Shown here in pieces: positions 3,351 to 16,144 of a DNA stretch of 64,000 nucleotides. The notes under the pieces are model-generated. The model ran no database searches. It was given only the letters and a program-made list of their open reading frames with translations, and was not told the DNA's origin. A program made the translations under genes and the position numbers. Numbering within the stretch: the first letter of the stretch is position 1; every line of letters starts with the position of its first letter. The stretch comes from an uncultured Clostridia bacterium (GTDB lineage: Bacteria > Bacillota > Clostridia > UBA1381). The DNA is taken from positions 458-64,457 of the forward strand of contig CANRAG010000002.1 in NCBI GenBank assembly GCA_947628515.1, read 5' to 3'.

Positions 3351-3548
3351 AATCCTCCGTTCTGAATTTTGTACCCGACGGGGAGATAAGAGAGAGAAGA
3401 AAATCTCCCCATCTTGCTCGTTTAACATCATTATACCGCTTTTAAATAACTTTTCTATTATAATAAGTCAGTTGTACTTGTCAAAAAGTCAGATTTTTAT
3501 ATTTACGTATTTCCCGAACGGAGTTATAATAAAAATGAGGTGGAAATT

Positions 3549-4369
3549 ATGGACGTACACAGCAAAAATCAAATACTGAATCAGCGCCTGTCAAAGCTGC
3601 AAACGGAATTTATACTTGTTGACCACGGCTTATGTCCCGACTGGTCGCGGCTTCCTCACCGCCGCAGGCGCGACAGCATTTATCTGATTCTTAGCGGCGA
3701 GGGTAAAATCACGGTAAACGGGCAGGAAATATATCCAAGGAAAACAATATGGTACTGCTCCCGAAAAATTCGATGGTATCGCTGTATTCGAAAAATGAAA
3801 CGTGCTACAACAAATATTGGTGCGATTTTATAATGCACTTTGACGGGATTTCGCTGTTCGACACGATTGATTTTCCGTACATGATAAAGCTTGACGATAT
3901 TTCCCGCGCACTGGAGCTTTTTGAGCTTCTTGACACTCTTCATCTCCGTAACGATACGGCTTCGGCTTTGCAGATAAACGCTGCGCTTTTGGAGCTTATT
4001 TCGATGTTTCTTGAAAACGATGCGCGCGATATGCCTCATGACGCTAAGGACAATCCTTTTACCGATAAAATGAAAAAATATATTGAGAGTCATATTGCCG
4101 GGAATTTGTCCGTAAAGAGGCTTGCCTCGGTTATGAATTTTAACGAAAAATATTTTATTGATGTATTTAAGGATAATTTTAGGACAACTCCCGCAAAATA
4201 TGTGAAAACAGTAAGGCTCGAGGCGGCAAAGCACGCGTTGTTGTATTCCGATGTCAAGGTGTCGTCAATCCCCGGTAAAATCGGATATTCAAGTCCTGAA
4301 AAGCTGTCAAAGGATTTCAAGGAATATACCGGCTTTTCGCCGAGCAACTTCCGCCGGACCTTTAAATAA
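3549..4369 (+). pseudogene. AraC/XylS-family regulator (cupin sensor + double HTH) with one reading-frame break
   Basis: Track ORFs 3540..3833 and 3749..4369 are two halves of one AraC protein. The first ends ...DSIYLILSGEGKITVNGQEIYPRK (cupin). The second continues (NN)MVLLPKNSMVSLYS... and carries the C-terminal HTH_18 region (SVKRLASVMNFNEKYFIDVFKDNFRTTPAKYVKTVRLEAAKHALL...IGYSSPEKLSKDFKEYTGFSPSNFRR). The frames differ by 1 nt around the A4 run at 3741-3744. ATG 3549 is preceded by GAGGTGG. It is divergent from the esterase gene at 1-3350. Confidence 0.6.
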
Positions 4370-4395
4370 ACAAGGTATGATTTTCCGCCGCATCT

Positions 4396-4870
4396 TTGAA
4401 CTCTTATGTTATACACCGCTATATAATCGCCGTGGCAAAGGACGGCTCTCAACCGCGTTTAAACTACACGATCTGGGGATATGACCCCTTTACCGTCAAT
4501 ACGAACAAAAACGGAAATTTGGCGGTGGTAAATCTGATAGCATCCGATTATTCCGGTCAGGGAATATTGATAAACAATGAGCTGAATATCGGCGGCACGG
4601 GTACGGTCGCGATAGTCGGCGGCGGAAGTGCCGTTTACGGACGTCGCGGGAACGGATTGGTTCTATAATGCGGTAAAGGCAGTATACGATGAGGGCATTA
4701 TGAACGGCGTAAGCGATACGGAATTTGCGCCGAACATGCCTCTCACGCGCGGGATGCTTGTGACAATCGTAGGACGCATGGGCGCAGCGGAGTCTGCGTC
4801 AAACACGTCGTTTGCAGACGTTTCCGCTGACGCGTACTACGCTCCGTATGTTGCGTGGGCTGCCGAAAAC
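4396..4870 (+). pseudogene. Remnant of an SLH-domain cell-surface protein gene (two frames, no credible start, truncated)
   Basis: Track ORF 4628..4975 (GTG) reads PFTDVAGTDWFYNAVKAVYDEGIMNGVSDTEFAPNMPLTRGMLVTIVGRM...SFADVSADAYYAPYVAWAAEN, which is about 1.5 canonical SLH repeats. Homology then stops and the ORF runs into the convergent transporter gene. ORF 4396..4668 abuts it in another frame. Neither piece has an RBS. A small hairpin plus T-run follows at about 4892-4916. Confidence 0.4.
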
Positions 4871-4917: not shown

Positions 4918-6153
4918 TTACAGCTTTGTAAGAAACTGCGCCGCCAACACCACGGTTATAAGCGCTATGGGATAGGTCGCCGCGTACGCCGACGCAACGT
5001 TTGACGTGCCCGTCATATTGATTAACGCGCCCAATGCCGGCGTGCTCGTCATACCGCCCGTAAGCGAGCCGAGGTTATTAAACAGACTCAGCTTTACAAC
5101 ATATTTCGCTACCATAAATCCTATAATCATCGGGATAAGCGTTATGAGCGCGCCCCATACAAACAGGATTGCGCCATGCTGCGCGAGCGTCTTGACGAAA
5201 GCCGCGCCTCCCTCGACGCCGGCTCCGGCGAGGAAGAGTATAAGCCCAAGCTCCTGGAAGATTGAAAGAAGCTTCGGATCAGCCTTCATGTCAAACCTTC
5301 CTATATGCCCGAAATGGCCGAGGATAAGACCCATAATCAGCGGCCCGCCCGTCGTGCCCAGTGAAAAGGCGCTTCCGCCGCCGAGCGGTATGCTTATCGA
5401 GCCTACGACAAGACCTATCATAATCGCGACCGCGAACGCGCCGATACCGAATTTATCGACCGTGAAATACTTCTTTCCGTCCGACCGTTCGCCCTTGCCC
5501 GCGTCCACGTCCTCAAGCAGCGCTCTTTCCTTTGCCATATCCGCTCCGAGAATTTTCGGCACTATCTGCACAAACAGCACAACGCCTATAACCCCGAACG
5601 GATACGCGATTGCCTGACCTACCGCGACGTTTGTCGCGAGCGTTTCGCCGACAGCCTCCTGTGCCGCGGCAAACGCCGGTGTGCTTGTAAGCGCGCCCGA
5701 AAGCAACCCTACCGTCAGCGCCGCGTCCATGTTCGGCGCGAACTTTATTATCGCGGCAGCCACAATCGCGCCCGAAAATATTATTATAAGTCCCAAAAGC
5801 ACGTATGATTTCGCGTTATTTACAAGGTTTTTAAAAAACGACGGGCCGGCGATAAGTCCGATTGACGTTACAAACAGCACAAGACCGAGGTTCTGCACCA
5901 TTTTGAAGTAATCGTTTACCTTTGACGCGTCGTCCGCCCACGCCGCTATGCTCTCAAAAGCGACGCCCTTAAAGTGACCTACGACCAACGCCATAATAAA
6001 TATACCGGCGCTGCCCAGAGACACTCCCTTTACGGATATGTGCCCCAGAAAGTAGCCCGTTACCAAAATCAGAAACAGAAAGAACAGAGTAAGCGCCATC
6101 GCGCCCATACTGTACATATGCGTTCCCAACACCTCAAATAATTTAAAGCTCAT
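4918..6153 (-). CDS. AAE-family (Asp-Al_Ex repeat; AspT/SucE1/YidE-like) membrane transporter, short form without TrkA_C inserts
   Basis: 411 aa and hydrophobic throughout, with roughly 10 TM segments. The N-terminus ...LGHISVKGVSLGSAGIFIMALVVGH and a second similar half (...ISIPLGGGSAFSLGTTGGPLIMGLILGH) match the duplicated Asp-Al_Ex permease repeat. It is the last gene of the redox string. A 73-nt gap with a weak 6-bp hairpin (6188-6207) separates it from the flavoprotein gene. Confidence 0.6.
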   Translation of the reverse strand: MSFKLFEVLGTHMYSMGAMALTLFFLFLILVTGYFLGHISVKGVSLGSAGIFIMALVVGHFKGVAFESIAAWADDASKVNDYFKMVQNLGLVLFVTSIGLIAGPSFFKNLVNNAKSYVLLGLIIIFSGAIVAAAIIKFAPNMDAALTVGLLSGALTSTPAFAAAQEAVGETLATNVAVGQAIAYPFGVIGVVLFVQIVPKILGADMAKERALLEDVDAGKGERSDGKKYFTVDKFGIGAFAVAIMIGLVVGSISIPLGGGSAFSLGTTGGPLIMGLILGHFGHIGRFDMKADPKLLSIFQELGLILFLAGAGVEGGAAFVKTLAQHGAILFVWGALITLIPMIIGFMVAKYVVKLSLFNNLGSLTGGMTSTPALGALINMTGTSNVASAYAATYPIALITVVLAAQFLTKL

Positions 6154-6226
6154 TTGCTATACCTCTTTCCCTTTTACGCGGCGATAAGACCGCCATGATA
6201 AGCGGTCCCGTCACAGAAACAATTAT

Positions 6227-7828
6227 TTATCTTTCGTGTCTGGCGTACTTCGGTAAAAGCAGCGGAGATACGTCGTTAGTTTCAAGTCCCGCTTCCGCCA
6301 AAGCCTTAGCGTAATCCTCGATATGCCGCAAGGTCAGCGCGCCAAGCTCTATATCCTTAGCCTTAGCCGCCGCTGCCTTACCCGCGTTCCGTCCGAATAC
6401 TATAATATCGAGAAGCGAGTTGCCCATGAGCCGGTTCCGTCCGTGAATTCCGCCCACGGCCTCGCCCGCCACGAGAAGGTTGTCAATAACCTTTGTAAAA
6501 CCGTCGCCGCCTATTTCAAGGCCGCCGTTCTGATAATGCAGCGTGGGATATACAAGAATGGGAAGCTCCCTCATGTCTATTCCGTAGTTCAGATACATTC
6601 TAAGCATCGCCGGTATTCTCTTTTCAATTGTGCCCGCCCCGCCTATTTTCTCAATCATCGGTGTATCGAGCCATACGCCCGAACCGAGCGGCGTCGTTAC
6701 GCCCTTGCCGCGCGCCGAACACTCGCGGATAATTGACGCGGCGGATACGTCGCGCGTTTCGAGCGGGTGCATGAACGCCTCGCCCTCCGCGTTTACGAGC
6801 ATCGCGCCCAAGGAACGCACCTTTTCCGTAACGAGCGCGCCGAATATCTGCGACGGATACGCCACGCCTGTCGGATGGTACTGGATCGTGTCCTGGTACA
6901 GCAGCGGCGCGCCCGCGCGGTAACCCATGACAAGACCGTCGGCCGTGGCTCCGTAATGGTTTGAGGTCGGGAAGTTCTGATAGTGCATTCTCCCCGCGCC
7001 GCCGGTCGCGATAATAACCGTCTTTGCGCGCGCGACCATATAATCGCCCGTTTCCATATTAAGAAGAACGGCGCCCGCCGCGCGTCCGTTTGTATCCTTT
7101 ATAAGCTCAACCGCCGATGTGAACTCGATTACCGGTATCTTGCGGTTTATGACCTCGTCTCGAACGGTTCTCATTATTTCAGCGCCCGAATAGTCCTTGC
7201 AGGCGTGCATTCTCTTTCTCGATGTGCCGCCGCCATGGGTCGTCACCATGTCGCCGTCCTCGTCCTTATCGAACATAACGCCCAGCTCGTTAAGCCATTT
7301 TATGGCGTCCGGCGCTTCCATGACCAACCGCCTTAAAAGCTCGGGTCTTGCGGCAAAGTGACCGCCGCCGAAAGCGTCAAGATAGTGCTGTACCGGCGAG
7401 TCGTTAGGCTTATCAGCCGCCTGTATTCCGCCCTCGGCCATCATCGTATTCGCGTCGCCTATGCGAAGCTTTGTCACTATCATTACCTTAGCGCCCGCCT
7501 CGTCAGCCTCGATTGCGGCCGACGCGCCGGCTCCGCCGCCGCCGATTATCAGCACATCCGTATCATAATCAATCTTTGTGAGGTCAATATCCTCGCCCAG
7601 AATACGGCTGTTTGAATGTAGAAGATTCGCAAGCTCCTTCGGGGCCTTCTCGCCCTTGTTGGGGCCAATCTTAATCTCGTCAAACGCCTCTGTTCTGTAG
7701 TCGGGATGATACGCCTTTAAAAGCTCGTCTTTTTCCTCGGCGGTCATTCTGCGCGGTTCTGTGCGCATACGCTCGTCGCGGGTGGCTTCAACCTTCCTGA
7801 CCGATTTCATCATTTCCGGTGTAAACAT
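6227..7828 (-). CDS. Soluble fumarate-reductase/succinate-dehydrogenase-type FAD flavoprotein (FrdA/SdhA/TfrA-like), non-covalent-FAD type
   Basis: 533 aa. VLIIGGGGAGASAAIEA (ADP-binding fold), TMMAEGGIQAA, QYHPTG and GGIHGRNRLMGNSLLDIIVFG are hallmark blocks of the SdhA/FrdA/NadB superfamily. There is no His at the covalent-flavinylation position (DANTMMAEGG). The N-terminus has an unusual ~90-aa extension. No membrane-anchor genes are nearby. Confidence 0.7.
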   Translation of the reverse strand: MFTPEMMKSVRKVEATRDERMRTEPRRMTAEEKDELLKAYHPDYRTEAFDEIKIGPNKGEKAPKELANLLHSNSRILGEDIDLTKIDYDTDVLIIGGGGAGASAAIEADEAGAKVMIVTKLRIGDANTMMAEGGIQAADKPNDSPVQHYLDAFGGGHFAARPELLRRLVMEAPDAIKWLNELGVMFDKDEDGDMVTTHGGGTSRKRMHACKDYSGAEIMRTVRDEVINRKIPVIEFTSAVELIKDTNGRAAGAVLLNMETGDYMVARAKTVIIATGGAGRMHYQNFPTSNHYGATADGLVMGYRAGAPLLYQDTIQYHPTGVAYPSQIFGALVTEKVRSLGAMLVNAEGEAFMHPLETRDVSAASIIRECSARGKGVTTPLGSGVWLDTPMIEKIGGAGTIEKRIPAMLRMYLNYGIDMRELPILVYPTLHYQNGGLEIGGDGFTKVIDNLLVAGEAVGGIHGRNRLMGNSLLDIIVFGRNAGKAAAAKAKDIELGALTLRHIEDYAKALAEAGLETNDVSPLLLPKYARHER

Positions 7829-7842
7829 TATATCATCCCTCC

Positions 7843-8517
7843 TTACTTCTCAATATCCCTTGTATTGTACAGCTCTTCAATCTCCGTTATCGGCTTTTGC
7901 ATAATCCGTTCTATAAGCTCGTCGTACTCTCCGTGGTTAATCTCCTCGACCCTGTCCTCAAGATGCCTAGATTTCGGCGCGATATATTTGCCCGTAAGCC
8001 GTCTTGCGAGCAACCCCACCATAGGATGCGAGATACCCGCCGGACATCTTACCGAGCAGCAGCCGCAGCCCACGCAATCGAATGAAAGCTCGGCGCACTT
8101 CTTGAAATCGCCCCTCTGCGCATACGCTATGTACTGCATTACGTCAAGCCCCTGTGTGCAGGCCTTTGTGCACGCGTTACAGCCGATACAGCTGTAAATC
8201 TCCGGATAAAGCTGCATCATAATCTGCTTATCCGGCTTTATTTCCTCTATCTTATACGTCCTCTTGTCCGTGGGGAAGAACGGAATACTTGCCACGCACA
8301 TCCCCTCCTGCACCTGCGTCTGACATGCAAGACATGTGTGCAGCTCATTTTTGCCCTTTATCCTGTATATGGTAGCGCAAGCGCCGCAAAAACCGTGACG
8401 GCAGCCGCAGCCGCGTTTTAATTCGTAACCGGCATACTCCATAGCGGTCATAATGGTAAGACTGTCCGGAACGCTGTAGCGCTTACCGTAAAAGTATACG
8501 TCAACCATGTTATCCAT
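7843..8517 (-). CDS. SdhB/FrdB-type iron-sulfur subunit (2Fe-2S plus two cubane-cluster motifs)
   Basis: 224 aa. GCRHGFCGACATIYRIKGKNELHTC fits the C-x4-C-x2-C...C plant-type 2Fe-2S motif of SdhB. It is followed by CIGCNACTKAC and CVGCGCCSVRCP. A 14-nt gap separates it from the flavoprotein gene. Confidence 0.7.
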   Translation of the reverse strand: MDNMVDVYFYGKRYSVPDSLTIMTAMEYAGYELKRGCGCRHGFCGACATIYRIKGKNELHTCLACQTQVQEGMCVASIPFFPTDKRTYKIEEIKPDKQIMMQLYPEIYSCIGCNACTKACTQGLDVMQYIAYAQRGDFKKCAELSFDCVGCGCCSVRCPAGISHPMVGLLARRLTGKYIAPKSRHLEDRVEEINHGEYDELIERIMQKPITEIEELYNTRDIEK

Positions 8518-8530
8518 GTGTCATTCCTCC

Positions 8531-9385
8531 TTAATATTCATCGGGCAGCTCGCCTATCTCGTCATAACGGAATACCGGCCCGTCCTTGCATACATATTTT
8601 GAACCGATATTGCATCTGCCGCACTTACCGATACCGCACTTCATACGCAGCTCCAGAGTTGTGTAAACCTGCTCATCCTTAAAGCCCAGCTCCTTAAGCC
8701 CCTGCAGTACAAACTTAATCATTATCGGCGGCCCGCATACAAGCGCGACTCTGTCGGTATCAAAGCCAAGCTCGCCGACATATGCCGGAACGAAACCCAC
8801 ATGGCCGTCCCAGCCCTCCTGCTCGCGGTCGATTGTGAGATATACGTTAACGTCTTTGGCATTCGCCCACACCTTGCGGATTTCCTCAAGCTTTACGAGA
8901 TCGTCGGCGGAACGCGAGCCGTAAACTATATCAACCGTTCCGTAATCGCCGCGGTTGTCGAGCACATAGTTTATCACCGAACGGAGCGGCGCAAGACCTA
9001 TACCTCCGGCGATAAACAGCAGATTTTTTCCTTTTAAATCCGTCTCGACCGGGAAATGGTTCCCGTACGGACCTCTTACGGTAATCTCGTCACCCTCTTC
9101 AAGATCATGCAGATAGCCCGTCAGCTCGCCGCACTTCTTTATGCTGAACTCCTGATACTCCTTGTTTGTGGGCGAGGATGTTATCGAAAACATACCCTCG
9201 CTTATACCGGGCGCGCAAAGCATCGCGCACTGGCCGGGCATATGCTCAAAGAGCTTGCCGCCCTGCGGAGCGGTCACGCAAAAGGTTTTAACATCAGGTG
9301 TTTCCCGTGTTATTTTTGTTATAACGCCCACACGCGGGACAAGCGCGTCAATCGCGTAATGCCTGGTACATGAACCCTCGCTCAT
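8531..9385 (-). CDS. flxA: FlxA-like NAD(P)H:FAD oxidoreductase subunit (AsrB/HydG-type FNR fold with C-terminal 2Fe-2S)
   Basis: 284 aa. It shows FNR-like blocks (GMFSITSSP, LLFIAGGIGLAPL) and a C-terminal CGIGKCGRCNIG...C cluster motif. Its position at the end of the hdr-flx string matches the published flxABCD-hdrABC module. Confidence 0.65.
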   Translation of the reverse strand: MSEGSCTRHYAIDALVPRVGVITKITRETPDVKTFCVTAPQGGKLFEHMPGQCAMLCAPGISEGMFSITSSPTNKEYQEFSIKKCGELTGYLHDLEEGDEITVRGPYGNHFPVETDLKGKNLLFIAGGIGLAPLRSVINYVLDNRGDYGTVDIVYGSRSADDLVKLEEIRKVWANAKDVNVYLTIDREQEGWDGHVGFVPAYVGELGFDTDRVALVCGPPIMIKFVLQGLKELGFKDEQVYTTLELRMKCGIGKCGRCNIGSKYVCKDGPVFRYDEIGELPDEY

Positions 9386-9386
9386 A

Positions 9387-10415
9387 TTATACGCCCTCCT
9401 TTTTAAACGCTTTTATAACCTTCACTATATTCAGGTTCTGCGGACACTTGTTAACGCATCTGCCGCAGCCGACACATGAATACATACCGTCGTTATTGGT
9501 CGGGAAATACACAAGCTTATGCATAAACCGCTGTCTGAACCGCTGCATCTGGCTTGTTCTGTTATTGCCGTGCGCCATTAATGTGAAGTCGGAATACATG
9601 CATGAATCCCAGCAGCGGTAACGCTGAACGCCGTGCCCCGTATCGTAGTCCTTTATATCGTAGCACTGACAGGTCGGGCATACGAATGTGCAGGTTCCGC
9701 ACGCGATACACGGTTTATATAAATCCTCCCACAGCGGCGAGTTGAAGCGTTCGAGCTTATCGTCCCTGCCCCAGCCGTCAAGCGAAAGGCGCATGTTCGG
9801 TATTTTGGAAACGATTTTCGATATTTCCTCCCGCTTAGCCTCAACCGCCGCGTCGTCTCCGTCGGATAAAAGGCGCTTCACGCTGTCTGTGAGCATTTCG
9901 CCCTTCTCCGTTACGGGGCGCCAGAACAGCTCGTCGCCTATGAGCCATGTTATCACGTCCGCGCCCGACGGCTCCGTGCAGTCAATTCCGAACACCTTGC
10001 AGAAGCAGCTAAGCTCCGGCTCGTTACAAGCCATCGCCACTATTATGCCGTGCTCGCGGCGGGCCGCATAGAATGTGTCCACCGGCTCGGCAAGGAACAC
10101 CTTGTCGAGAACCTCAACGCCGCGAACGTCGCATGCCTTCATGCCGAACACAACAAAGCTTTCGTCCGTAAGCGCCTCAAGCGTTATTGTAATCTTCTTT
10201 CCTTCCTTCCCGCAGGTATACAAATTCTCGCTCTGCGGGAAGAACGCGTCCTTTGGCGATTTTACCGTCTTTAGGGTTTTAATATCCACCTCGGCGGAAC
10301 GCGTCCACTGTTCAAAGTTGGTCTGTCCCGCTTTCTTCACCGGAATATAGAGGGTGTTTGTCTCGGCAATCGCCTCATATAAATCGGGGAGGTTTTCTTT
10401 TGCTATTTTATACAT
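9387..10415 (-). CDS. flxB: FlxB-like Fe-S subunit (AsrA/HydB-type)
   Basis: Cluster motifs CIACGTCTFVCPTCQCYD and CVGCGRCVNKCP are present. The track ORF starts at 10454, but ATG 10415 (MYKIAKENL) has AAGGAGGTG upstream and removes the overlap with flxC. There is a 1-nt gap to flxA. Confidence 0.6.
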   Translation of the reverse strand: MYKIAKENLPDLYEAIAETNTLYIPVKKAGQTNFEQWTRSAEVDIKTLKTVKSPKDAFFPQSENLYTCGKEGKKITITLEALTDESFVVFGMKACDVRGVEVLDKVFLAEPVDTFYAARREHGIIVAMACNEPELSCFCKVFGIDCTEPSGADVITWLIGDELFWRPVTEKGEMLTDSVKRLLSDGDDAAVEAKREEISKIVSKIPNMRLSLDGWGRDDKLERFNSPLWEDLYKPCIACGTCTFVCPTCQCYDIKDYDTGHGVQRYRCWDSCMYSDFTLMAHGNNRTSQMQRFRQRFMHKLVYFPTNNDGMYSCVGCGRCVNKCPQNLNIVKVIKAFKKEGV

Positions 10416-10428
10416 AACATCCACCTCC

Positions 10429-11391
10429 TTATACAGTACCCGGCTCCGCGTCACCGAAGGTGAAGCTTGTAAGCGGGGTCGCGCCCTCGGCGCTCTCGCC
10501 CGCGCAAAAATCGCCGTATAGAGTGTTTATATCCTTTATGAACTTGCGGTTCAGCAAGTGGAGCGGAATACCCTGCGGACATACCCTGCTGCACTCGCCG
10601 CAATCCGTGCACCGTCCCGCGACGTGGAACGCGCGGATTATATGGAACATTTTTTCCTCAAAGCTGTCCGAATTGGCCTTCTGAGCGCTGTCAAACTTCG
10701 TGCTGTCAAACACGCATTTGCGGCACGAGCATGCCGGACACACGTTGCGGCACGCGTTGCATCGGATACATTTTGAAAGCTCTGCCTTAAAGAACGCGAA
10801 CCTTTCCTCCGGACTCATCGCCTCGATTTTGCGAACCTCGTCAAACCGGTCGCCGTCAACCGTGTCAGCCGAGTCGCCTATCAGCTCGTCATAAACGACG
10901 TACTCCTTGCCCCTGCATACGTGGCATCTTTCAAGCATCGCGTCCCTATACGCGCAGGTTGTGTTTCCCGTAAGCGTTTCTATTGTAAGAGTGTCGCAAG
11001 CGTCTGTAAGCTCCGCGCCCTTAACGTCTATGACATTCTTTATCCCTATCGCGTTAAGGCTCGCCTCGCTTATTTTACCCTTGCAGCCCACGCCGATTAT
11101 GTACGCCTTTTCCCTGTCTACTCTGTTCTCCTTTAAAAGCTGGTTGAAGCTGTAGGTATCGCAGGGCTTCAAAAATACAAGCGTTCTGCCATCCAGCTCG
11201 GACGCTTCTATCATATACTTTGAAAGGTTTGCGCCGCAAAAGCCGTTATATACAAATTCCGAAAGACTTTCCCCGTCATTAAAATACGCCGGTTCGGGGT
11301 TTGTCGGTAAATCGCCCCTTCTCCAGCCGAGAACTCTCGCAACCGTGCCGTCGGCCAACAGCTCCTTTGTGCGGTTTATCAGCTCCTGCAT
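10429..11391 (-). CDS. flxC: FlxC-like Fe-S subunit (FrhB/4Fe-4S dicluster-type)
   Basis: 320 aa with CIRCNACRNVCPACSCRKC and CTDCGECSRVCPQGI motifs. It sits between mvhD/flxD and flxB and overlaps the flxD stop by 13 nt. Confidence 0.55.
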   Translation of the reverse strand: MQELINRTKELLADGTVARVLGWRRGDLPTNPEPAYFNDGESLSEFVYNGFCGANLSKYMIEASELDGRTLVFLKPCDTYSFNQLLKENRVDREKAYIIGVGCKGKISEASLNAIGIKNVIDVKGAELTDACDTLTIETLTGNTTCAYRDAMLERCHVCRGKEYVVYDELIGDSADTVDGDRFDEVRKIEAMSPEERFAFFKAELSKCIRCNACRNVCPACSCRKCVFDSTKFDSAQKANSDSFEEKMFHIIRAFHVAGRCTDCGECSRVCPQGIPLHLLNRKFIKDINTLYGDFCAGESAEGATPLTSFTFGDAEPGTV

Positions 11392-11822
11392 CTTAAATCC
11401 CCCAATCTTACGTTCTTGCCGAGCGACTTGATTTTTTCCACAAACTCGTTCATAGTGGCTGAGAACTTAACGCCCTCGGCGGCAGAAACCCACTCGACTC
11501 TCGTTCTGCCGTGCTCAACCCCGATATAGTCAAGCATTGAGAACAGAAGCGTCATTCTTCTTCTCGCATAGTAATTGCCCGTGCTGTAGTGGCAGTCGCC
11601 CGGATGGCAGCCGCACATTATAACGCCGTCCGCGCCCTTTTCGAACGCTCTTAATATAAACATCGGGTTTACGCGGCATGAGCACGGCACCTTTATAATC
11701 TTTACGTCGGCAGGATATGTGAGACGGCTGCTGCCCGCTAAATCCGCGCCCGCATAGCTGCACCAGTTACAGCAGAACGCCACAATTTTGGGTCTGAATT
11801 CCGCGTTATCATTCATCGGCAT
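11379..11822 (-). CDS. flxD: MvhD-like (methyl-viologen-reducing hydrogenase delta subunit) 2Fe-2S protein = FlxD
   Basis: PKIVAFCCNWCSYAGADLAGSSRLTYPADVKIIKVPCSCRVNPMFILRAFEKGADGVIMCGCHPGDCHY is the canonical MvhD/FlpD domain. The likely start is ATG 11822 (GGAGGTG 8 nt upstream) or ATG 11816, which overlaps the hdrA stop as ATGA. The track start at 11921 is inside hdrA. Confidence 0.8.
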   Translation of the reverse strand: MPMNDNAEFRPKIVAFCCNWCSYAGADLAGSSRLTYPADVKIIKVPCSCRVNPMFILRAFEKGADGVIMCGCHPGDCHYSTGNYYARRRMTLLFSMLDYIGVEHGRTRVEWVSAAEGVKFSATMNEFVEKIKSLGKNVRLGDLRCRS

Positions 11823-13801
11823 ATCGCGTCCACCTCCGCTATAATCTGTCTGTTTGAAAAGCCCTGAAGATCCATTGCGCCCGACGGACACGTAACTGTG
11901 CAGGCGCCGCAGCCCTGGCACAGCGCGTTGTTTACAACCGCTACGCGGCGGTTTTCGCGAACGCCCGGACCCATAACAAGCCTTGTTTCATATGAAATCG
12001 CGCCGTAAGGACACACGTTCGCGCACTGCGAACACCCGTTGCACATCAGCTCATCCGCCTTTGCGGTACACGGGTTTGTCATAAGCTTATCCTTTGCCAA
12101 AAGGCCGATTGCCTTGACCGCCGCCGCGCCCGCCTGCGCCACCGTTTCGGGAATATCCTTCGGCCCCTGGCACACGCCCGAGAGGAACACTCCCGCCGTC
12201 GGGGACTCGACCGGACGCAGCTTCGGATGCGCCTCCGTCAGGAAATTATTCGTATCAATGCTTGCGGTAAGCATTGTGGCAATCTGTCTTACCGATGCGG
12301 ACGGCTCGATAGCCGCCGCGAGAACGACCATATCCGCGCTCATTCTGAGCTGCTTGTTATCCAGCAAATCTGACGCGTAAACCGTGAGACTTCCGTCCGG
12401 CTCCGGACAGACCTTTCCAACCTGTCCCTTTATGTAATTAACGCCGTATTCCTCAACAGCGCGGCGATAGAACTCGTCAAAATTCTTACCGGGCGTTCTC
12501 ACGTCGATATAGAATACCGTCACATTCACATCCGGATACTTGTCGCGTATGAGCATCGCGTGCTTCGCGGTATACATACAGCATATCTTCGAGCAGTAGC
12601 TTTTGCCGCGCTCGTCCGCGCAGCGGCTGCCCACGCATTGCACGAATACAATATTTTTGGGTTCCCTGCCGTCGGAAAGTCTTTGCAGATGTCCCTTTGT
12701 GGGACCGGCGGCATTCATAATTCTCTCAAGCTCAAGCGACGTTATAACATCCCTGCTCTGTGAATACGCGTATTCGTCATATTTATCCAGCTTGATAACG
12801 TCAAAGCCCGTCGCGACGACAATCGCGCCGTACTTCCGCGTTATAATCTCATCCTTTTGCTCATAGTCTATCGCGCCCGCCGCGCACACCTTTGAGCACA
12901 GTCCGCACTTTCCGGTTTTAAATTTTATACATGCCTCGCGGTCGATTACCGGCACGTTCGGTATCGCCTGCGCAAACGGTGTGTATATTGCGGTTCTTGT
13001 GTTAAGCCCGCGGTTGAACTCGCTCGGAGTTTTCTTCGACGGACATTTTTCCTGACACAGGCCGCAGCCCGTGCATTTATTCATATCAACGCTTCTCGCC
13101 TTTTTGCGTATGTCAACCGTGAAATCTCCGACAAATCCCGATACCTGTTCCACCTCGCTGTATGTGTAAATATTAATCTTGTCATGCGCGGCGGCCTCGA
13201 CCATTTTCGGCGTAAGGATACACGCCGAACAGTCAAGAGTCGGAAATGTCTTGTCAAGCTGTGACATTCTTCCGCCTATCGACGGCGTTTTCTCAACTAT
13301 ATCCACCTCATAGCCCGCGTCGGCAATGTCAAGCGCGGTCTGTATACCCGCTATACCGCCGCCTATTACAAGCGCGCGCTTTGTAACCCGACTTTCGCCC
13401 GGCTTTAGCGGTGTGTTGAGGTTTACCTTCGCAACGGCGGCGCGCATTAGAATTACCGCCTTCTTCGTCGCCTCCTCAACATCCTTATGTATCCACGAGC
13501 AATGCTCGCGTATATTCGCAATCTCAACCATGTACGGATTTATTCCCGCGCGCTCGGCGCAGGTTCTGAACGTTGTCTCATGCATTCTCGGCGAGCACGA
13601 GCACACCACAATGCCCGTGAGATTTTTTTCCGCGATTGCCGCCGCAATCTTCGCCTGTCCTGCCTCGGAGCACATATACTGATAGTCCTCGGCATGAACA
13701 ACACCCGGCTCCATAAGAGCCGTTTCCGTTACCTTCTTAACGTCCACCGTCGCCGCGATATTACTTCCGCAATGGCAGACAAAAACACCTATTCTCTGCA
13801 A
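11813..13801 (-). CDS. hdrA: Heterodisulfide reductase subunit A (HdrA; FAD + multiple 4Fe-4S, the bifurcating-type flavoprotein)
   Basis: Blocks seen: IGVFVCHCGSNIA, VIGGGIAGIQTALDIADAGYEV, CTGCGLCQEKCP, FVQCVGSRC...CSKICC, CNGCSQCANVCPYG and CQGCGACTVTCPSG. The track ORF begins at 13861 inside hdrC. TTG 13801 with GAGGAG at 13810-13815 (8-nt spacing) avoids that overlap. Confidence 0.85.
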   Translation of the reverse strand: MQRIGVFVCHCGSNIAATVDVKKVTETALMEPGVVHAEDYQYMCSEAGQAKIAAAIAEKNLTGIVVCSCSPRMHETTFRTCAERAGINPYMVEIANIREHCSWIHKDVEEATKKAVILMRAAVAKVNLNTPLKPGESRVTKRALVIGGGIAGIQTALDIADAGYEVDIVEKTPSIGGRMSQLDKTFPTLDCSACILTPKMVEAAAHDKINIYTYSEVEQVSGFVGDFTVDIRKKARSVDMNKCTGCGLCQEKCPSKKTPSEFNRGLNTRTAIYTPFAQAIPNVPVIDREACIKFKTGKCGLCSKVCAAGAIDYEQKDEIITRKYGAIVVATGFDVIKLDKYDEYAYSQSRDVITSLELERIMNAAGPTKGHLQRLSDGREPKNIVFVQCVGSRCADERGKSYCSKICCMYTAKHAMLIRDKYPDVNVTVFYIDVRTPGKNFDEFYRRAVEEYGVNYIKGQVGKVCPEPDGSLTVYASDLLDNKQLRMSADMVVLAAAIEPSASVRQIATMLTASIDTNNFLTEAHPKLRPVESPTAGVFLSGVCQGPKDIPETVAQAGAAAVKAIGLLAKDKLMTNPCTAKADELMCNGCSQCANVCPYGAISYETRLVMGPGVRENRRVAVVNNALCQGCGACTVTCPSGAMDLQGFSNRQIIAEVDAICR

Positions 13802-13829
13802 ACCCTTCACTCCTCTATGACTGTACGAT

Positions 13830-14219
13830 TCACTTTCTGTACCTTCTGAACGCGCTGACAATCAGCTGCTGCGGTGTGTCCTCGTCAAACAGCTCCGGTA
13901 TCTCGTCGGGCGTAAGATAATCCCCGCCCCGCTGTCGTTCCGCTATCTGCCTCGCCGCGTCAATCAGCTTGCCGGGCTTAACGCCGCGCGGGCAGCGCTC
14001 AACGCACGCGAAGCATGAAAGACAGTGCCACAGCGACTTTGATTTCGTAAGCGGTTCTATATCATCGTTATCCACATACGACACGAACTGGTGCGGCTTT
14101 ATATCCATCTTGTCAAAGCTTGGACAGGTTGCCGAGCACTTGCCGCATTTCATACACTTCTTCGGATTAACCCCGCTTATTTCGCGGATTTGCTCCGCCA
14201 ATAAATCCGATTTATTCAT
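13830..14219 (-). CDS. hdrC: Heterodisulfide reductase subunit C (HdrC; two 4Fe-4S motifs)
   Basis: 129 aa with CMKCGKCSATCPS and CLSCFACVERCPRG. The start overlaps the hdrB stop by 8 nt. Confidence 0.8.
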   Translation of the reverse strand: MNKSDLLAEQIREISGVNPKKCMKCGKCSATCPSFDKMDIKPHQFVSYVDNDDIEPLTKSKSLWHCLSCFACVERCPRGVKPGKLIDAARQIAERQRGGDYLTPDEIPELFDEDTPQQLIVSAFRRYRK

Positions 14220-15009
14220 TATCCGCCGCCTCCTTTACGCCCAAAGCCTCGGCGAGCAGCTCTGTAAAATAATATACGGGAAGAACGTCTCCGGCCGCCT
14301 TATTGATATTATACAGGCACAGCGGGCATGCGGTGATAAGCATCTGCGCGCCCCAGCCCTTCGCGCTGCCCGTAATATCTAAGCAGAGATATTTCGACCG
14401 CTCCTTTTCCTTTAGCGATATGTAGCCGCCGCAGCATTCGTTACGGTACGGGTACACAACCGGCTCCGCGCCGATTGCCCTTATGAAATCCTCCATGATT
14501 GTCGGGTTTTCCGGATCGTCAAACGCCATGAGCTTGCCCGGCCTTAAAAGCAGACAGCCGTAATACGCGCCAATCCTCTTGCCCGTCAGCGGATTTACAA
14601 CCTTCTTTTTAAGCTCGTCAAAGCCTATAACATCGCGAAGCACCTCTAAGAAGTGCAGCACCTTTGTTTCGCCCGCATAGGGCGTTTCAAGCTGCATATA
14701 ATTATTCGCGCGAGTTCTTATATCATCGACATTTCGCATATCGTCATTTACGCGCTTTAGAACATGGTGGCACGCCGAGCAAAGCGTTACAAGCTCCTGT
14801 CCTCTGTCCCTTGCCGCCGCAAGGTTTCGCACGGACGCGAGCTTTGTCGCGATTTCATCGCTGCCGAGCGGATAAACGCCGCCGCAGCACTGCCACTCAT
14901 CTATTTCCTCCAATTCGATACCGAGCGCCGCGGCCGACGCGCGCGCGTACTTGTCGAGCGCCGTCGCCTTTGACTTAAGCGTGCAGCCCGGATAATAACT
15001 GTATTTCAT
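14212..15009 (-). CDS. hdrB: Heterodisulfide reductase subunit B (HdrB; CCG-domain protein)
   Basis: 265 aa. YYPGCTLKS..., WQCCGG and NECCGG are the duplicated CCG (Cys-rich) motifs. It lies 28 nt downstream of ldh. Confidence 0.8.
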   Translation of the reverse strand: MKYSYYPGCTLKSKATALDKYARASAAALGIELEEIDEWQCCGGVYPLGSDEIATKLASVRNLAAARDRGQELVTLCSACHHVLKRVNDDMRNVDDIRTRANNYMQLETPYAGETKVLHFLEVLRDVIGFDELKKKVVNPLTGKRIGAYYGCLLLRPGKLMAFDDPENPTIMEDFIRAIGAEPVVYPYRNECCGGYISLKEKERSKYLCLDITGSAKGWGAQMLITACPLCLYNINKAAGDVLPVYYFTELLAEALGVKEAADNE

Positions 15010-15037
15010 ATGGTTTAAGGAACTCTCCTTTCCAAGA

Positions 15038-15985
15038 TTATATTTCTATATTATCTATAACCTTCTTCAAAATGCTTGCGCTGCGCTGAAGCTTATATAT
15101 TTCCTCATCCGTAAGCTTAACCGGCACCTTGCCGCGAACGCCCTCCGGGCCTATAAGCGTGGGAACGCTCAGGCACACGTCGCTTATTCCGTATTCGCCG
15201 TGGAGCATAGAGGTTATTGTAGAAATCGAGTTATACGCCGAAAGAAGTATTGAGCACAGCCGGCATACCGCGACTGACACCGCGTAGAACGTCGCGCCCT
15301 TGTTTTCGATAATTCTTCCGCCGGATTCATGTATGTAATTCGTCATATTTTCCCGATCAAGCGGCTCGATATTCTTTCCGAACGACTTCATAACGTCCGT
15401 ATACTCCTCAAGAGTACAGCCTGAAATCTTCGCTATTGACCACGGCACGAACGAGGAGTCGCCATGCTCGCCGAAAACATACGCGTGTATGTTTCGCTGC
15501 GCAATCTCGTAATGCTCGGACAGCCCGTAGCGCAGCCGCGCCGTGTCAAGCAGAGTGCCCGAACCCATAATCTGATTTTCCGGCAGCCCCGAAAGCTTTG
15601 TGAAAACGTATGTCATTATGTCTACCGGATTGCTGACTATGATATAGAGCGCGTCCGGAGCCGCCTTTACAATATCCGGCGTTATGCTTTTAAGCACATC
15701 CACGTTTGTCTGCGTAAGCTCTATTCTCGTCTGCCCCGGCTTCCGCGCGATACCGGATGTGATTATAACAATATCTGAGCCTTCCGCGTCCTTATAGTCG
15801 CCCGCCTTAATGGATATAGGGTCGCGGAATGACGCGCCCTGAACAATATCCATCGCCTCGCCGATGACCTTCTGCTTATTGATATCAATCATCACAATTT
15901 CTGATGCTATAGCTTCGTTAGATAACGTATAAGCTATTGTGGAGCCGACGCTGCCCGCGCCGATAATAGTAATTTTACTTGCCAT
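15038..15985 (-). CDS. ldh: L-lactate dehydrogenase (NAD-dependent)
   Basis: KITIIGAGSVGSTIAY (Rossmann fold), DIVIITSGIARKPGQTR, SNPVDIMT and GEHGDSSFVPWS (catalytic His block). ATG 15985 (MASKITIIG) follows AGGAGA. The track start at 15994 is 3 codons upstream. Confidence 0.9.
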   Translation of the reverse strand: MASKITIIGAGSVGSTIAYTLSNEAIASEIVMIDINKQKVIGEAMDIVQGASFRDPISIKAGDYKDAEGSDIVIITSGIARKPGQTRIELTQTNVDVLKSITPDIVKAAPDALYIIVSNPVDIMTYVFTKLSGLPENQIMGSGTLLDTARLRYGLSEHYEIAQRNIHAYVFGEHGDSSFVPWSIAKISGCTLEEYTDVMKSFGKNIEPLDRENMTNYIHESGGRIIENKGATFYAVSVAVCRLCSILLSAYNSISTITSMLHGEYGISDVCLSVPTLIGPEGVRGKVPVKLTDEEIYKLQRSASILKKVIDNIEI

Positions 15986-16014
15986 ATATACCATTCTCCT
16001 GTTATTTGTTATAT

Positions 16015-16126: not shown

Positions 16127-16144
16127 TTGTCAAATTTTTAACAA
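16127..16144. promoter_or_regulatory. Candidate Rex (redox-sensing repressor) operator
   Basis: TTGTCAAATTTTTAACAA matches the clostridial Rex consensus TTGTTAA-N4-TTAACAA at 13/14 half-site positions and is a palindrome. It lies 142 nt upstream of the ldh ATG and overlaps AT-rich -10/-35-like hexamers on the minus strand (TTGACA / TATAAA). Confidence 0.45.

Follow-up and report, generated by a model that had tools for sequence, protein, structure and literature searches.

The FlxABCD-HdrABC of Desulfovibrio vulgaris was reportedly described by Ramos et al. in 2015, with the disulfide of DsrC proposed as its acceptor in ethanol metabolism. The locus analysed here, part of a 64,000-nt stretch of DNA (the window), has the same hdr-flx gene content and domains in almost the same order, but adds a fumarate reductase pair and lacks DsrC. 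In Methanothermobacter, Heim et al. are said to have described in 1998 the thiol:fumarate reductase TfrAB, also a soluble fumarate reductase. Its TfrB joins an SdhB-like N-terminus to HdrB-like CCG domains, parts which the window holds as separate FrdB-like and HdrB proteins, and its donors are CoM-SH and CoB-SH, whereas the donor in our locus is presumably NADH via Flx. In the tree, the window's flavoprotein lies in a clade apart from TfrA. The methanogen MvhADG-HdrABC shares the HdrABC-MvhD core; its acceptor is CoM-S-S-CoB, whereas here it is probably fumarate via FrdAB.

The Flx-Hdr-fumarate reductase 'succinate operon' of Pseudoclostridium thermosuccinogenes (Koendjbiharie et al. 2020, BMC Microbiol, PMC7282089) has the same build as ours: behind seven flx-hdr genes come two for a fumarate reductase (CDQ83_RS03320-25, likened to those of the window by their published description) and one for a putative succinate transporter. 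Its first gene encodes a fumarate hydratase; that of the window's operon is of the malate dehydrogenase type, and a fumarase gene is absent from the window. When CO2 is limiting, expression of the P. thermosuccinogenes operon rises about 4-fold (PMC7282089). For this operon, too, the reduction of fumarate by NADH has been proposed to be coupled to that of ferredoxin, already in a 2019 preprint by Koendjbiharie and van Kranenburg, going by its listing as reference 15 of PMC7282089.

A flx-hdr/tfrAB cluster is also known from tubeworm symbionts (Rubin-Blum 2019, mSphere, PMC6315080) and is co-expressed in Endoriftia (Mitchell 2024, PMC11636981). In these symbionts and in Thioflavicoccus mobilis, flxABCD-hdrABC are interspersed with korABCD and tfrAB in an rTCA cluster (PMC6315080, PMC11636981). 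The combination of Flx-Hdr with a soluble two-subunit fumarate reductase and the proposed bifurcation to fumarate and ferredoxin are the same as here; the setting differs, being autotrophic CO2 fixation in Gammaproteobacteria with a 2-oxoglutarate:ferredoxin oxidoreductase in the cluster. The symbiont TfrAB is likened to the window's pair by its published description. Finally, the FrdABCDE of Hydrogenobacter thermophilus (Miura et al. 2008) is, as described in PMC13147460, also a cytoplasmic, multi-subunit, NADH-linked and quinone-independent fumarate reductase, but has five subunits from dispersed loci and, in that description, no reported bifurcation.

The novelty implied by the initial annotation of the window does not hold, as the same architecture and bifurcation hypothesis have been published for P. 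thermosuccinogenes (PMC7282089) and tubeworm symbionts (PMC6315080, PMC11636981, PMC13147460). In a 2026 survey the complex is still described as 'suggested' (PMC13147460), and our literature search found no biochemical characterisation of any member. On balance, we favour the reading that the window encodes an NADH-oxidising Flx-Hdr with a soluble fumarate reductase, bifurcating to ferredoxin and fumarate.

Gene organization of the locus

All eleven ORFs, annotated as co-directional minus-strand genes between 4918 and 15994, were confirmed at their positions. In the order of transcription, preceded by a candidate operator, they are:

16127..16144, minus strand: candidate Rex operator TTGTTAAAAATTTGACAA, 150 nt upstream of the first gene
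15038..15994, minus strand: LDH-family dehydrogenase, predicted mdh, first gene (Ldh_1_N and Ldh_1_C domains)
14212..15009, minus strand: hdrB (PF02754 twice, two CCG domains)
13830..14219, minus strand: hdrC, ferredoxin-like, two [4Fe-4S] (best match TIGR03290 HdrC)
11813..13801, minus strand: hdrA, FAD and Fe-S subunit (HdrA2 model)
11379..11816, minus strand: flxD, mvhD-like (PF02662 FlpD, E 2.4e-54)
10429..11391, minus strand: flxC, Fe-S protein (two CxxCxxCxxxCP motifs)
9387..10415, minus strand: flxB, AsrA/ShyB-type Fe-S protein (Fer4_22 domain)
8531..9385, minus strand: flxA (FAD_binding_6, NAD_binding_1, DHODB_Fe-S_bind)
7843..8517, minus strand: frdB-like Fe-S subunit (Fer2_4 and Fer4 dicluster domains)
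6227..7828, minus strand: frdA-like flavoprotein (PF00890, FAD_binding_2, E 1.1e-68)
4918..6153, minus strand: AAE-family permease, last gene (PF06826 twice, Asp-Al_Ex, E 4.7e-72)

Three of these starts are corrected. The hdrA ORF reaches 13861, with a likely TTG start at 13801, 9 nt after an AGGAG; the flxD ORF spans 11379-11921, and its start was read as the ATG at 11816, overlapping with the stop codon of hdrA (ATGA); the flxB ORF spans 9387-10454, with ATG 10415 as its likely start. With these corrections the junctions lie between a 13-nt overlap and a 73-nt gap, in agreement with the initial annotation. Terminator-like sites within the cluster are no commoner than in shuffled sequence. 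From the spacing, we infer that the eleven genes form a single transcription unit.

The candidate operator fits 12/12 core positions of TTGTnAA-N4-TTnACAA, which we take to be the operator consensus of Rex, the NADH/NAD+ sensor. Boxes matching at least 11/12 positions occur in 21 of 46 orthologous upstream regions, compared to 3 of 920 shuffles. The operon may thus be under Rex control.

The first gene had been named ldh and proposed as an entry for electrons from lactate. By HMM score its product is indeed a member of the LDH family (TIGR01771 340, cut-off 303.55), yet it carries the specificity residue of a malate dehydrogenase: the motif GIARKPGQTR places an Arg at LDH position 102. This Arg102 is kept in all 47 orthologues found upstream of hdrB (47/47). 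The residue in the gene and its orthologues predicts a malate dehydrogenase, most likely reducing oxaloacetate to malate, so that the family assignment stands while the lactate dehydrogenase function and the lactate input lose their support.

Hdr and Flx subunits

The cluster-binding motifs of the Hdr proteins are intact. HdrB has the ligands for two non-cubane [4Fe-4S] clusters (C9...C41C42G...C77xxC80 and C152...C192C193G...C227xxC230), and its top NCBIfam matches are MFR SdhE (140 bits) and HdrB (130 bits), both under cut-off. HdrC contains two CxxCxxCxxxCP motifs. HdrA matches the HdrA2 model with 800 bits across model positions 1-640, that is, as a full-length HdrA. A GxGxxG motif lies at its residue 167, and the CxxCxxCxxxCP motif occurs three times; bifurcation is presumed to take place at this flavoprotein. 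FlxB scores 146-196 bits against the ShyB, HydB and AsrA models. FlxA is the predicted entry point for NADH, with NAD(P)H- and FAD-binding domains and a C-terminal 2Fe-2S site.

Conservation and fumarate context in related loci

The initial annotation had linked the Frd-like pair to hdr-flx, and this adjacency is kept in relatives: hdrB-hdrC-hdrA-flxD-flxC-flxB-flxA-frdB-frdA are colinear on one strand in 59 of 59 informative related loci, defined as those with 7.3 kb or more of DNA upstream. The flxC gene is colinear in all related loci. Fumarate hydratase is encoded inside the cluster in 69 of 80 related loci, as a class I fumarase alpha/beta pair in 47 (NF004885 417, cut-off 276) and as class II fumC in 22 (TIGR00979 705, cut-off 664.75). 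No fumarase gene was found within the 64,000-nt window. In a Bathyarchaeota genome the order is malic enzyme-fumarase alpha-fumarase beta-frdB-frdA.

The donor module varies. An Asgard locus reads kor-hdrA-mvhD-mvhG-mvhA-hycI-hdrC-hdrB-frdB-frdA, with mvhAG between hdrA-mvhD and hdrCB-frdBA, and locus L081, whose frdA groups with Bathyarchaeota homologues, reads kor-hdrA-mvhD-hdrC-hdrB-frdB-frdA. In the related hdr-flx loci, in L081 and in the Asgard locus, frdB always comes immediately after flxA or hdrB. The link between Hdr and Frd is independent of the donor module, the Mvh hydrogenase replacing Flx in the archaeal relative. More distant FrdAB-like members lack Hdr, some as stand-alone pairs and one adjoining a NuoF-like gene, and the pair is therefore not dependent on Hdr.

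This last member, a gammaproteobacterial three-gene operon frdB-frdA-nuoF-like, suggests that simple NADH:fumarate chemistry is possible for the FrdAB family, and PMC13147460 cites soluble NADH-dependent fumarate reductases of Hydrogenobacter and Klebsiella. Flx-Hdr could thus be a plain wire from NADH to FrdAB in a non-bifurcating enzyme, with ferredoxin not reduced. We regard this as unlikely, though the likeliest of the alternatives: nine subunits including a full-length HdrA would be extravagant for a wire, and the Asgard locus joins the Hdr-Frd core to Mvh hydrogenase, the classic bifurcating arrangement. To our knowledge, the HdrA homologues characterised to date all bifurcate.

The fumarate reductase-like pair

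The FrdB-like protein has motifs for one [2Fe-2S] and two [4Fe-4S] clusters (two CxxCxxCxxxC), and twelve Cys are invariant across its family. It matches SdhB chains with E 1.8e-6 and the TfrB model with 30 bits (positions 17-179), far under the cut-off of 385, and appears to be of a distant SdhB/TfrB N-terminal type. A natural FrdB-FrdA fusion protein (P0123) exists. Domain and model searches and the family alignment found no CCG domain in the FrdB-like protein. The top NCBIfam match of the flavoprotein is TfrA, again far under cut-off (334 bits vs 718).

Two separate co-regulated enzymes could also account for the operon: Flx-Hdr would reduce a low-molecular-weight or protein disulfide, and the thiol or another donor would re-reduce the fumarate reductase, in the manner of the archaeal thiol:fumarate reductase. 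The TfrA match points this way, as do both intact CCG motifs of HdrB, a complete disulfide-reducing site that makes a thiol/disulfide intermediate possible, and an intermediary resembling DsrC has been discussed for the tubeworm symbiont (PMC11636981). The FrdB-like protein, however, lacks the CCG domain that is TfrB's thiol-oxidising part, no candidate for a conserved thiol/disulfide carrier gene was found in the clusters, and frdB sits invariably right behind flxA or hdrB. We consider this arrangement improbable compared to direct reduction of the pair by Flx-Hdr.

The flavoprotein retains all the residues expected to bind fumarate. Its residues H318, T334/E335, R359, H431 and R466 align with H232, T244/E245, R287, H355 and R390 of E. 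coli FrdA, and this catalytic set is invariant in the flavoprotein family. The AF2 model (pLDDT 92.3) has E. coli FrdA (1kf6_A) as its best Foldseek match (E 1.8e-36). As first noted from the sequence, the position of the covalent-FAD His is occupied by another residue, Asn127, invariant in the family, and the FAD is predicted to be non-covalent. The N-terminal extension of about 90 aa is also real: PF00890 begins at residue 91, behind a conserved, family-specific extension. The C-terminus is short, a domain search giving no match to Succ_DH_flav_C, and, in agreement with the initial annotation, the cluster contains no SdhC/D anchor gene.

These catalytic residues, the fumarase neighbours and the fold match indicate that the substrate is very probably fumarate, in line with the fumarate-type pair of the initial annotation. 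An enzyme of the L-aspartate oxidase type, or one acting on another enoate such as mesaconate or urocanate, seems quite improbable. NadB has the same catalytic residues, NadB models score 250-256 bits, not much below the TfrA and Sdh/Frd models, and the AAE family includes an aspartate:alanine exchanger; in the tree the flavoprotein family forms a separate clade, so that it has no characterised close relative to indicate its specificity. Against this, labelled NadB falls outside that clade in 100/100 bootstraps and ranks 50th in the fold search, the flavoprotein has an Fe-S partner, which NadB lacks, and the conserved neighbours are fumarases and the Arg102 malate dehydrogenase-type gene. The match to AprA-type PAPS reductase is weak.

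The permease scores 186 against TIGR01625 (cut-off 72) and consists of two Asp-Al_Ex repeats, the central TrkA_C domain being absent. In 47 of 80 loci, frdA has an AAE gene downstream of it, with only 46-56% identity to the window's copy. The permease is presumed to be an exporter or exchanger of C4-dicarboxylates (succinate).

Proposed reaction

With fumarate as acceptor, the LDH-family enzyme with Arg102 would convert oxaloacetate to malate, and a fumarase, in-cluster in most relatives but here necessarily encoded elsewhere in the genome, would convert malate to fumarate. FlxA would oxidise NADH and pass electrons through FlxB, FlxC and FlxD to the FAD of HdrA, which would split the pairs. 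The low-potential branch would reduce ferredoxin. In the high-potential branch, the clusters of HdrC and HdrB would deliver electrons directly, within one complex, to the three clusters of the FrdB-like protein and on to the non-covalent FAD of the FrdA-like protein, where fumarate would become succinate. Fumarate would thus stand where the heterodisulfide would be, and the permease would export or exchange the C4 product. The net reaction would be 2 NADH + Fd(ox) + fumarate -> 2 NAD+ + Fd(red) + succinate. With textbook potentials of about +30 mV for fumarate/succinate, -320 mV for NADH and about -420 mV for ferredoxin, this coupled reaction is exergonic.

Sdh/Frd enzymes generally work in both directions, and flavin-based bifurcation can be reversed, so it is conceivable that reduced ferredoxin drives succinate oxidation at FrdAB in vivo, with NADH formed by confurcation. 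We consider it highly improbable: the malate dehydrogenase-type first gene and the fumarases are consistent with a reductive branch, the operon's carriers are fermenting Clostridia of the gut, and the P. thermosuccinogenes operon is tied to succinate production (PMC7282089).

Our genome scan returned at least 598 matching stretches, and this operon type appears to be present in hundreds of species. The window is a further member of a predicted enzyme class proposed from genomes. As a whole, mdh-hdrBCA-flxDCBA-frdBA-AAE is best explained, with somewhat better than even confidence, as a cytoplasmic, quinone-independent 'succinate operon' in a gut Clostridium.

Gene organization of the cluster

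The initial annotation had described eleven co-directional genes, and an ORF scan recovered all of them on the minus strand at the same positions. Families were assigned by Pfam and NCBIfam profile searches.

Genes of the cluster, with the profile evidence in brackets
4918-6153, minus strand: AAE permease with two Asp-Al_Ex repeats (TIGR01625, 186 against a cut-off of 72)
6227-7828, minus strand: FAD_binding_2 flavoprotein, 533 aa, frdA-like (Pfam/NCBIfam)
7843-8517, minus strand: Fe-S protein, 224 aa, frdB-like (Pfam/NCBIfam)
8531-9385, minus strand: FlxA-like protein (FAD_binding_6, NAD_binding_1, DHODB Fe-S site)
9387-10454 (longest ORF), minus strand: FlxB-like Fe-S protein (Pfam/NCBIfam)
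10429-11391, minus strand: FlxC-like Fe-S protein (Pfam/NCBIfam)
11379-11921 (longest ORF), minus strand: MvhD-like protein (FlpD), flxD (Pfam/NCBIfam)
11813-13861 (longest ORF), minus strand: HdrA (HdrA2 model, 800 bits over positions 1-640)
13830-14219, minus strand: HdrC (Pfam/NCBIfam)
14212-15009, minus strand: HdrB (Pfam/NCBIfam)
15038-15994, minus strand: LDH-family dehydrogenase (Pfam/NCBIfam)

Reading the junctions showed that three apparent long overlaps, among them the 109-nt hdrA/flxD and the 26-nt flxC/flxB overlap, arise merely from the choice of the longest ORF. The start of flxD is the ATG at 11816, in an ATGA overlap with the hdrA stop, while hdrA probably starts at TTG 13801 and flxB at ATG 10415. 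With these corrected starts, the range of junctions reported initially, from a 13-nt overlap to a 73-nt gap, holds. The last three gaps measure 14 nt between frdB and frdA, 73 nt between frdA and the AAE gene, and 13 nt between flxA and frdB, the latter spacer being 200-300 nt in four related clusters (L010, L033, L035 and L040).

All genes of an FlxABCD-HdrABC set are thus present, contiguous and co-directional. HdrB carries two complete CCG motifs, HdrA an FAD site and Fe-S clusters, and FlxA NAD(P)- and FAD-binding domains together with a 2Fe-2S site. The AAE permease matches PF06826 twice; at 411 aa it lacks the central TrkA_C domains found in long members of its family.

A consensus scan of the cluster gave no excess of terminator- or promoter-like sites over shuffled sequence. 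Rfam at gathering thresholds gave zero matches in the whole 64-kb window, and therefore no known riboswitch or leader. Upstream of the cluster, TTGTTAAAAATTTGACAA at 16127-16144 (minus strand), 150 nt from the first gene, agrees with 12 of 12 core positions of TTGTnAA-N4-TTnACAA, which we take to be the Rex-type operator consensus. Boxes with at least 11 of 12 matches are found in 21 of 46 orthologous upstream regions compared to 3 of 920 shuffles. This candidate Rex operator suggests that the operon may be controlled by the NADH/NAD+ ratio.

Elsewhere in the window, large ORFs of 376-629 aa without a Pfam match are found at 16875-18764 (minus), 32042-33850 (minus), 33881-35758 (minus) and 39043-40173 (plus), the first of which has no NCBIfam match either. 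The genes around them encode glycoside hydrolases (GH3, GH38), a polysaccharide deacetylase and an SLH-domain protein.

A distinct clade of fumarate reductase-like flavoproteins

The FAD domain of the flavoprotein starts at residue 91 (PF00890 match), and the AlphaFold2 model (pLDDT 92.3) has the N-terminal 88 residues confidently folded. The top match of this model in a Foldseek search of the PDB is E. coli FrdA (1kf6_A, E 1.8e-36, about 450 aligned columns), with NadB only in 50th place. The dicarboxylate-binding and catalytic set of the Sdh/Frd superfamily (His, Thr-Glu, Arg, His and Arg on an FAD_binding_2 fold) is complete and invariant in the family: H318, T334/E335, R359, H431 and R466 presumably correspond to H232, T244/E245, R287, H355 and R390 of E. 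coli FrdA. Aligned to E. coli SdhA, the flavoprotein has Asn127 in place of the His that binds FAD covalently, and this Asn is likewise invariant in the family.

We considered the known classes in turn. A membrane-bound SdhA/FrdA of complex II was rejected: the covalent-FAD His is missing, PF02910 (Succ_DH_flav_C) has no match in the flavoprotein, with only about 45 residues following the FAD domain, and the ORF scan found no membrane anchor gene in the cluster. Among the NCBIfam models TfrA scores highest (334 bits), ahead of Sdh/Frd (272) and NadB (250-256), all far under their cut-offs, as are all Sdh/Frd equivalog scores. Membership in TfrAB was rejected on scores of 334 against 718 for TfrA and 30 against 385 for TfrB, together with a Fe-S protein that has no CCG domain. 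NadB was rejected as well: TIGR00551 scores 250 against a cut-off of 453, and the Fe-S partner is always adjacent (fused in P0123), save in P0157, a Hdr-less member with no adjoining Fe-S gene. To AprAB the flavoprotein has only weak similarity, with no AprA model among its 25 best NCBIfam matches and a single AprA-type (APS/PAPS reductase) relative in the PDB, 8a8o, at E 3e-10 compared to E 1e-62 for Sdh.

A small neighbour-joining tree, unrooted save for a midpoint root and without AprA, included NCBIfam-labelled references for one bona fide TfrA (P0219), Sdh/Frd-type sequences and two NadB. In this tree the window flavoprotein and its relatives form their own clade in 100 of 100 bootstraps, separate from P0219 and outside the TfrA, Sdh/Frd and NadB groups. 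Clustering with NadB, or a pair of the AprAB type, had been named at the outset as results that would speak against a fumarate reductase; the tree places NadB outside the clade, and the NCBIfam and PDB searches do not point to AprAB.

The Fe-S protein contains the 2Fe-2S motif C39-x4-C44-x2-C47...C65 and two full CxxCxxCxxxC motifs, and twelve Cys are invariant across its family. It aligns weakly but colinearly with SdhB (E 1.8e-6) and with the N-terminal part of TfrB (30 bits), and an SdhB-like fold is predicted from its sequence. A natural FrdB-FrdA fusion of 727 aa, P0123, is encoded at L086:5250-7433 in a context without hdr or flx.

Domain and profile searches and the alignment detected no CCG domain in the Fe-S protein. 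In methanogen TfrB an SdhB-like N-terminus is fused to HdrB-like CCG domains, whereas the cluster encodes the same parts as separate proteins. These features bear on the possibility of a thiol-mediated two-enzyme system. On motif reading both CCG motifs of HdrB are intact, so its disulfide-reducing site is preserved; nevertheless, such a route is weakened since FrdB lacks the CCG domain.

Conservation of the hdr-flx-frd order

Scanning a one-genome-per-species GTDB collection gave at least 598 matching stretches, of which the best 80 (L001-L080, P. thermosuccinogenes not among them) were used for synteny. In these 80 loci the flavoprotein is 72-89% identical to that of the window. They come from Lachnospiraceae, Oscillospiraceae, Acutalibacteraceae, Christensenella tenuis, Fusicatenibacter, Sporofaciens, Ohessyouella and one Synergistaceae MAG. 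All 59 loci that extend 7.3 kb or more upstream carry the whole series hdrB-hdrC-hdrA-flxD-flxC-flxB-flxA-frdB-frdA in colinear order, and no locus among the 80 closest of the at least 598 contradicts it. The initial annotation had proposed conservation of this adjacency in relatives as a test, which the 59 informative loci bear out.

An LDH-family gene is found upstream in 47 and an AAE gene downstream in 47 of the 80 closest of at least 598 loci. The AAE permease of the window is 46-56% identical to those of its relatives compared to a median of 65-85% for the other ten genes, and may be a different paralogue or a replacement.

Across Clostridia families (L001-L080, for example L056 from Christensenella tenuis), both the flavoprotein and HdrA keep 70-90% identity, and the whole operon is also found in the Synergistaceae MAG (L074). 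These two observations suggest that the operon has spread horizontally or is under very strong constraint.

Neighbouring genes point to fumarate as substrate

A rival explanation is that the flavoprotein acts on a different substrate. As substrate evidence we used the genes that co-localize with it. Class I fumarate hydratase alpha and beta genes (NF004885, 417 against a cut-off of 276) follow the frdA or AAE gene in 47 of the 80 closest loci, and a class II fumC (TIGR00979, 705 against 664.75) lies between the LDH-family gene and hdrB in another 22, so that a fumarase accompanies 69 of the 80 closest of at least 598 clusters. A complete Bathyarchaeota genome has the order malic enzyme-fumarase alpha-fumarase beta-frdB-frdA. 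No fumarase was detected in the entire 64-kb window by tblastn with fumarase queries; its cluster ends at the AAE gene, which adjoins convergent genes.

The product of the first gene scores over the L-LDH equivalog cut-off (TIGR01771). Its substrate-loop motif, GIARKPGQTR, has Arg at the position of Gln102 in L-LDH, as do 47 of 47 orthologues upstream of hdrB. An Arg at position 102 classically determines malate dehydrogenase specificity, while Gln102 confers pyruvate specificity in L-LDH; the meaning of this position is reportedly due to the Q102R work of Wilks et al. in 1988. We therefore rejected L-lactate dehydrogenase in spite of the model score: given the Arg in the window protein and in every orthologue, the first gene is probably mdh, not ldh. 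The lactate input via Ldh proposed initially is accordingly not supported. Together with the fumarases, an Arg102 mdh suggests that these clusters encode the reductive branch from oxaloacetate through malate and fumarate to succinate. Since Arg102 proteins of the window and of 47 loci exceed its curated cut-off, TIGR01771 probably gives rise to systematic mislabelling as 'L-lactate dehydrogenase' in gut Clostridia.

Archaeal and distant relatives

The nearest non-clostridial relatives of the flavoprotein are archaeal, from Bathyarchaeota and Asgard MAGs (53-59% identity). L081, a 10-kb contig whose frdA groups with the Bathyarchaeota homologues, has the order kor genes-hdrA-mvhD-hdrC-hdrB-frdB-frdA and no flxABC. 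L089:1-11656, from an Asgard MAG (GCA_052584985.1), reads kor genes-hdrA-mvhD-mvhG-mvhA-hycI-hdrC-hdrB-frdB-frdA, with an Mvh [NiFe]-hydrogenase where Flx stands in Clostridia. Its hdrA (2617-4539), missing from the gene calls of the record, was located with tblastn (50% identity). At least two different donor modules are therefore combined with frdBA following hdrCB, and the link to Hdr is independent of Flx. This arrangement fits FrdAB as the predicted acceptor module of an HdrABC-type machine.

Family members at greater distance (43-54% identity) have no Hdr beside them: they are stand-alone frdB-frdA pairs, the P0123 fusion, P0157 with no adjoining Fe-S gene, or part of a Gammaproteobacteria operon. 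The last, L082:9366-12891, from a marine Gammaproteobacteria MAG, is a three-gene operon of frdB-like, frdA-like and NuoF-like genes that possibly encodes a simple soluble NADH:fumarate reductase of the same family. All Hdr-less distant members have the N-terminal extension, which is thus a family feature and not a Hdr-docking device as such.

Proposed mechanism

In the best-supported model, NADH would enter at FlxA, and FlxB, FlxC and FlxD would carry electrons to the HdrA flavin. The low-potential branch would lead to ferredoxin, and the high-potential branch through HdrC and HdrB to FrdB, the FAD of FrdA and fumarate. We infer that the proteins form a complex, that electrons pass directly from HdrB to FrdB, that ferredoxin is reduced, and what the AAE permease transports. 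By textbook potentials the coupled reaction is exergonic. Two further rival explanations are a non-bifurcating NADH:fumarate reductase, in which FrdAB would be reduced with no ferredoxin branch, and operation of the system in reverse. Of the initial interpretation, the core is supported, a fumarate reductase tied to Flx-Hdr; its 'ldh' is probably mdh on the strength of Arg102.

It is possible, if somewhat short of probable, that the FrdAB-like pair represents a modular class of Hdr-coupled soluble fumarate reductases in bacteria and archaea, in which the non-cubane clusters of HdrB would pass electrons directly to the Fe-S protein and not to a disulfide, and hence a further type of flavin-based electron-bifurcating enzyme. 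The donor may then be interchangeable, with Flx (NADH) in gut Clostridia, Mvh (H2) in the Asgard MAG and none on the short L081 contig.

Discussion

The idea of a Flx-Hdr-fumarate reductase is already published and not novel. In the 'succinate operon' of P. thermosuccinogenes, seven genes for an NADH dehydrogenase/heterodisulfide reductase complex and two for a fumarate reductase are accompanied by fumarate hydratase and a putative succinate transporter, and the operon is induced about 4-fold under CO2 limitation (PMC7282089, 2020). The window cluster fits this layout in that two genes for a soluble fumarate reductase and one for a transporter follow flx-hdr, but it lacks a gene for fumarate hydratase. 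In tubeworm symbionts and Thioflavicoccus, flxABCD-hdrABC is interspersed with korABCD and tfrAB, and a complex was proposed (PMC6315080, 2019). The same tubeworm-symbiont gene cluster and its intergenic regions are co-expressed, tfrAB being the exception in the differential-expression pattern (PMC11636981, 2024). In 2026 a Flx-Hdr-fumarate reductase complex was still 'suggested' (PMC13147460).

Our literature search found no biochemical characterization of such a complex, and no paper turned up in full-text searches for a bifurcating fumarate reductase or for HdrA together with 'soluble fumarate reductase'. Two reviews of bifurcating enzymes leave such a fumarate reductase undiscussed: 'fumarate reductase' appears in the reference list only of one, and 'fumarate' is absent from the other. 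The window cluster thus joins a predicted, biochemically uncharacterized class, and is unusual mainly by its missing fumarase gene and divergent AAE gene. What we add is the scale and strictness of the synteny, the co-localization of fumarase and Arg102 mdh as substrate evidence, a separate flavoprotein clade with an invariant Asn127 and an N-terminal extension, the archaeal Mvh-Hdr-Frd arrangement, and a likely Rex operator upstream of the operon.

These results bear on the high-potential acceptor of Flx-Hdr in bacteria without DsrC, for which a candidate is encoded here next to the complex. The present annotation hides the pathway, as the flavoprotein carries the generic label 'FAD-dependent oxidoreductase' and the first gene matches an L-lactate dehydrogenase model over its cut-off.

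To our knowledge, the gut Clostridia that carry the operon have no quinones. Should the complex bifurcate, fermentative Clostridia would gain reduced ferredoxin when reducing fumarate, which can drive Rnf or H2 formation, and energy would be gained from fumarate without quinones or a membrane-bound reductase. Given at least 598 matches, including Lachnospiraceae, Oscillospiraceae, Acutalibacteraceae and Christensenella, the operon could be a major route to succinate in gut and rumen, with consequences for how metabolic models balance redox and H2. A modular class of Hdr-coupled fumarate reductases, if true, would explain succinate formation and energy conservation in hundreds of gut Clostridia.
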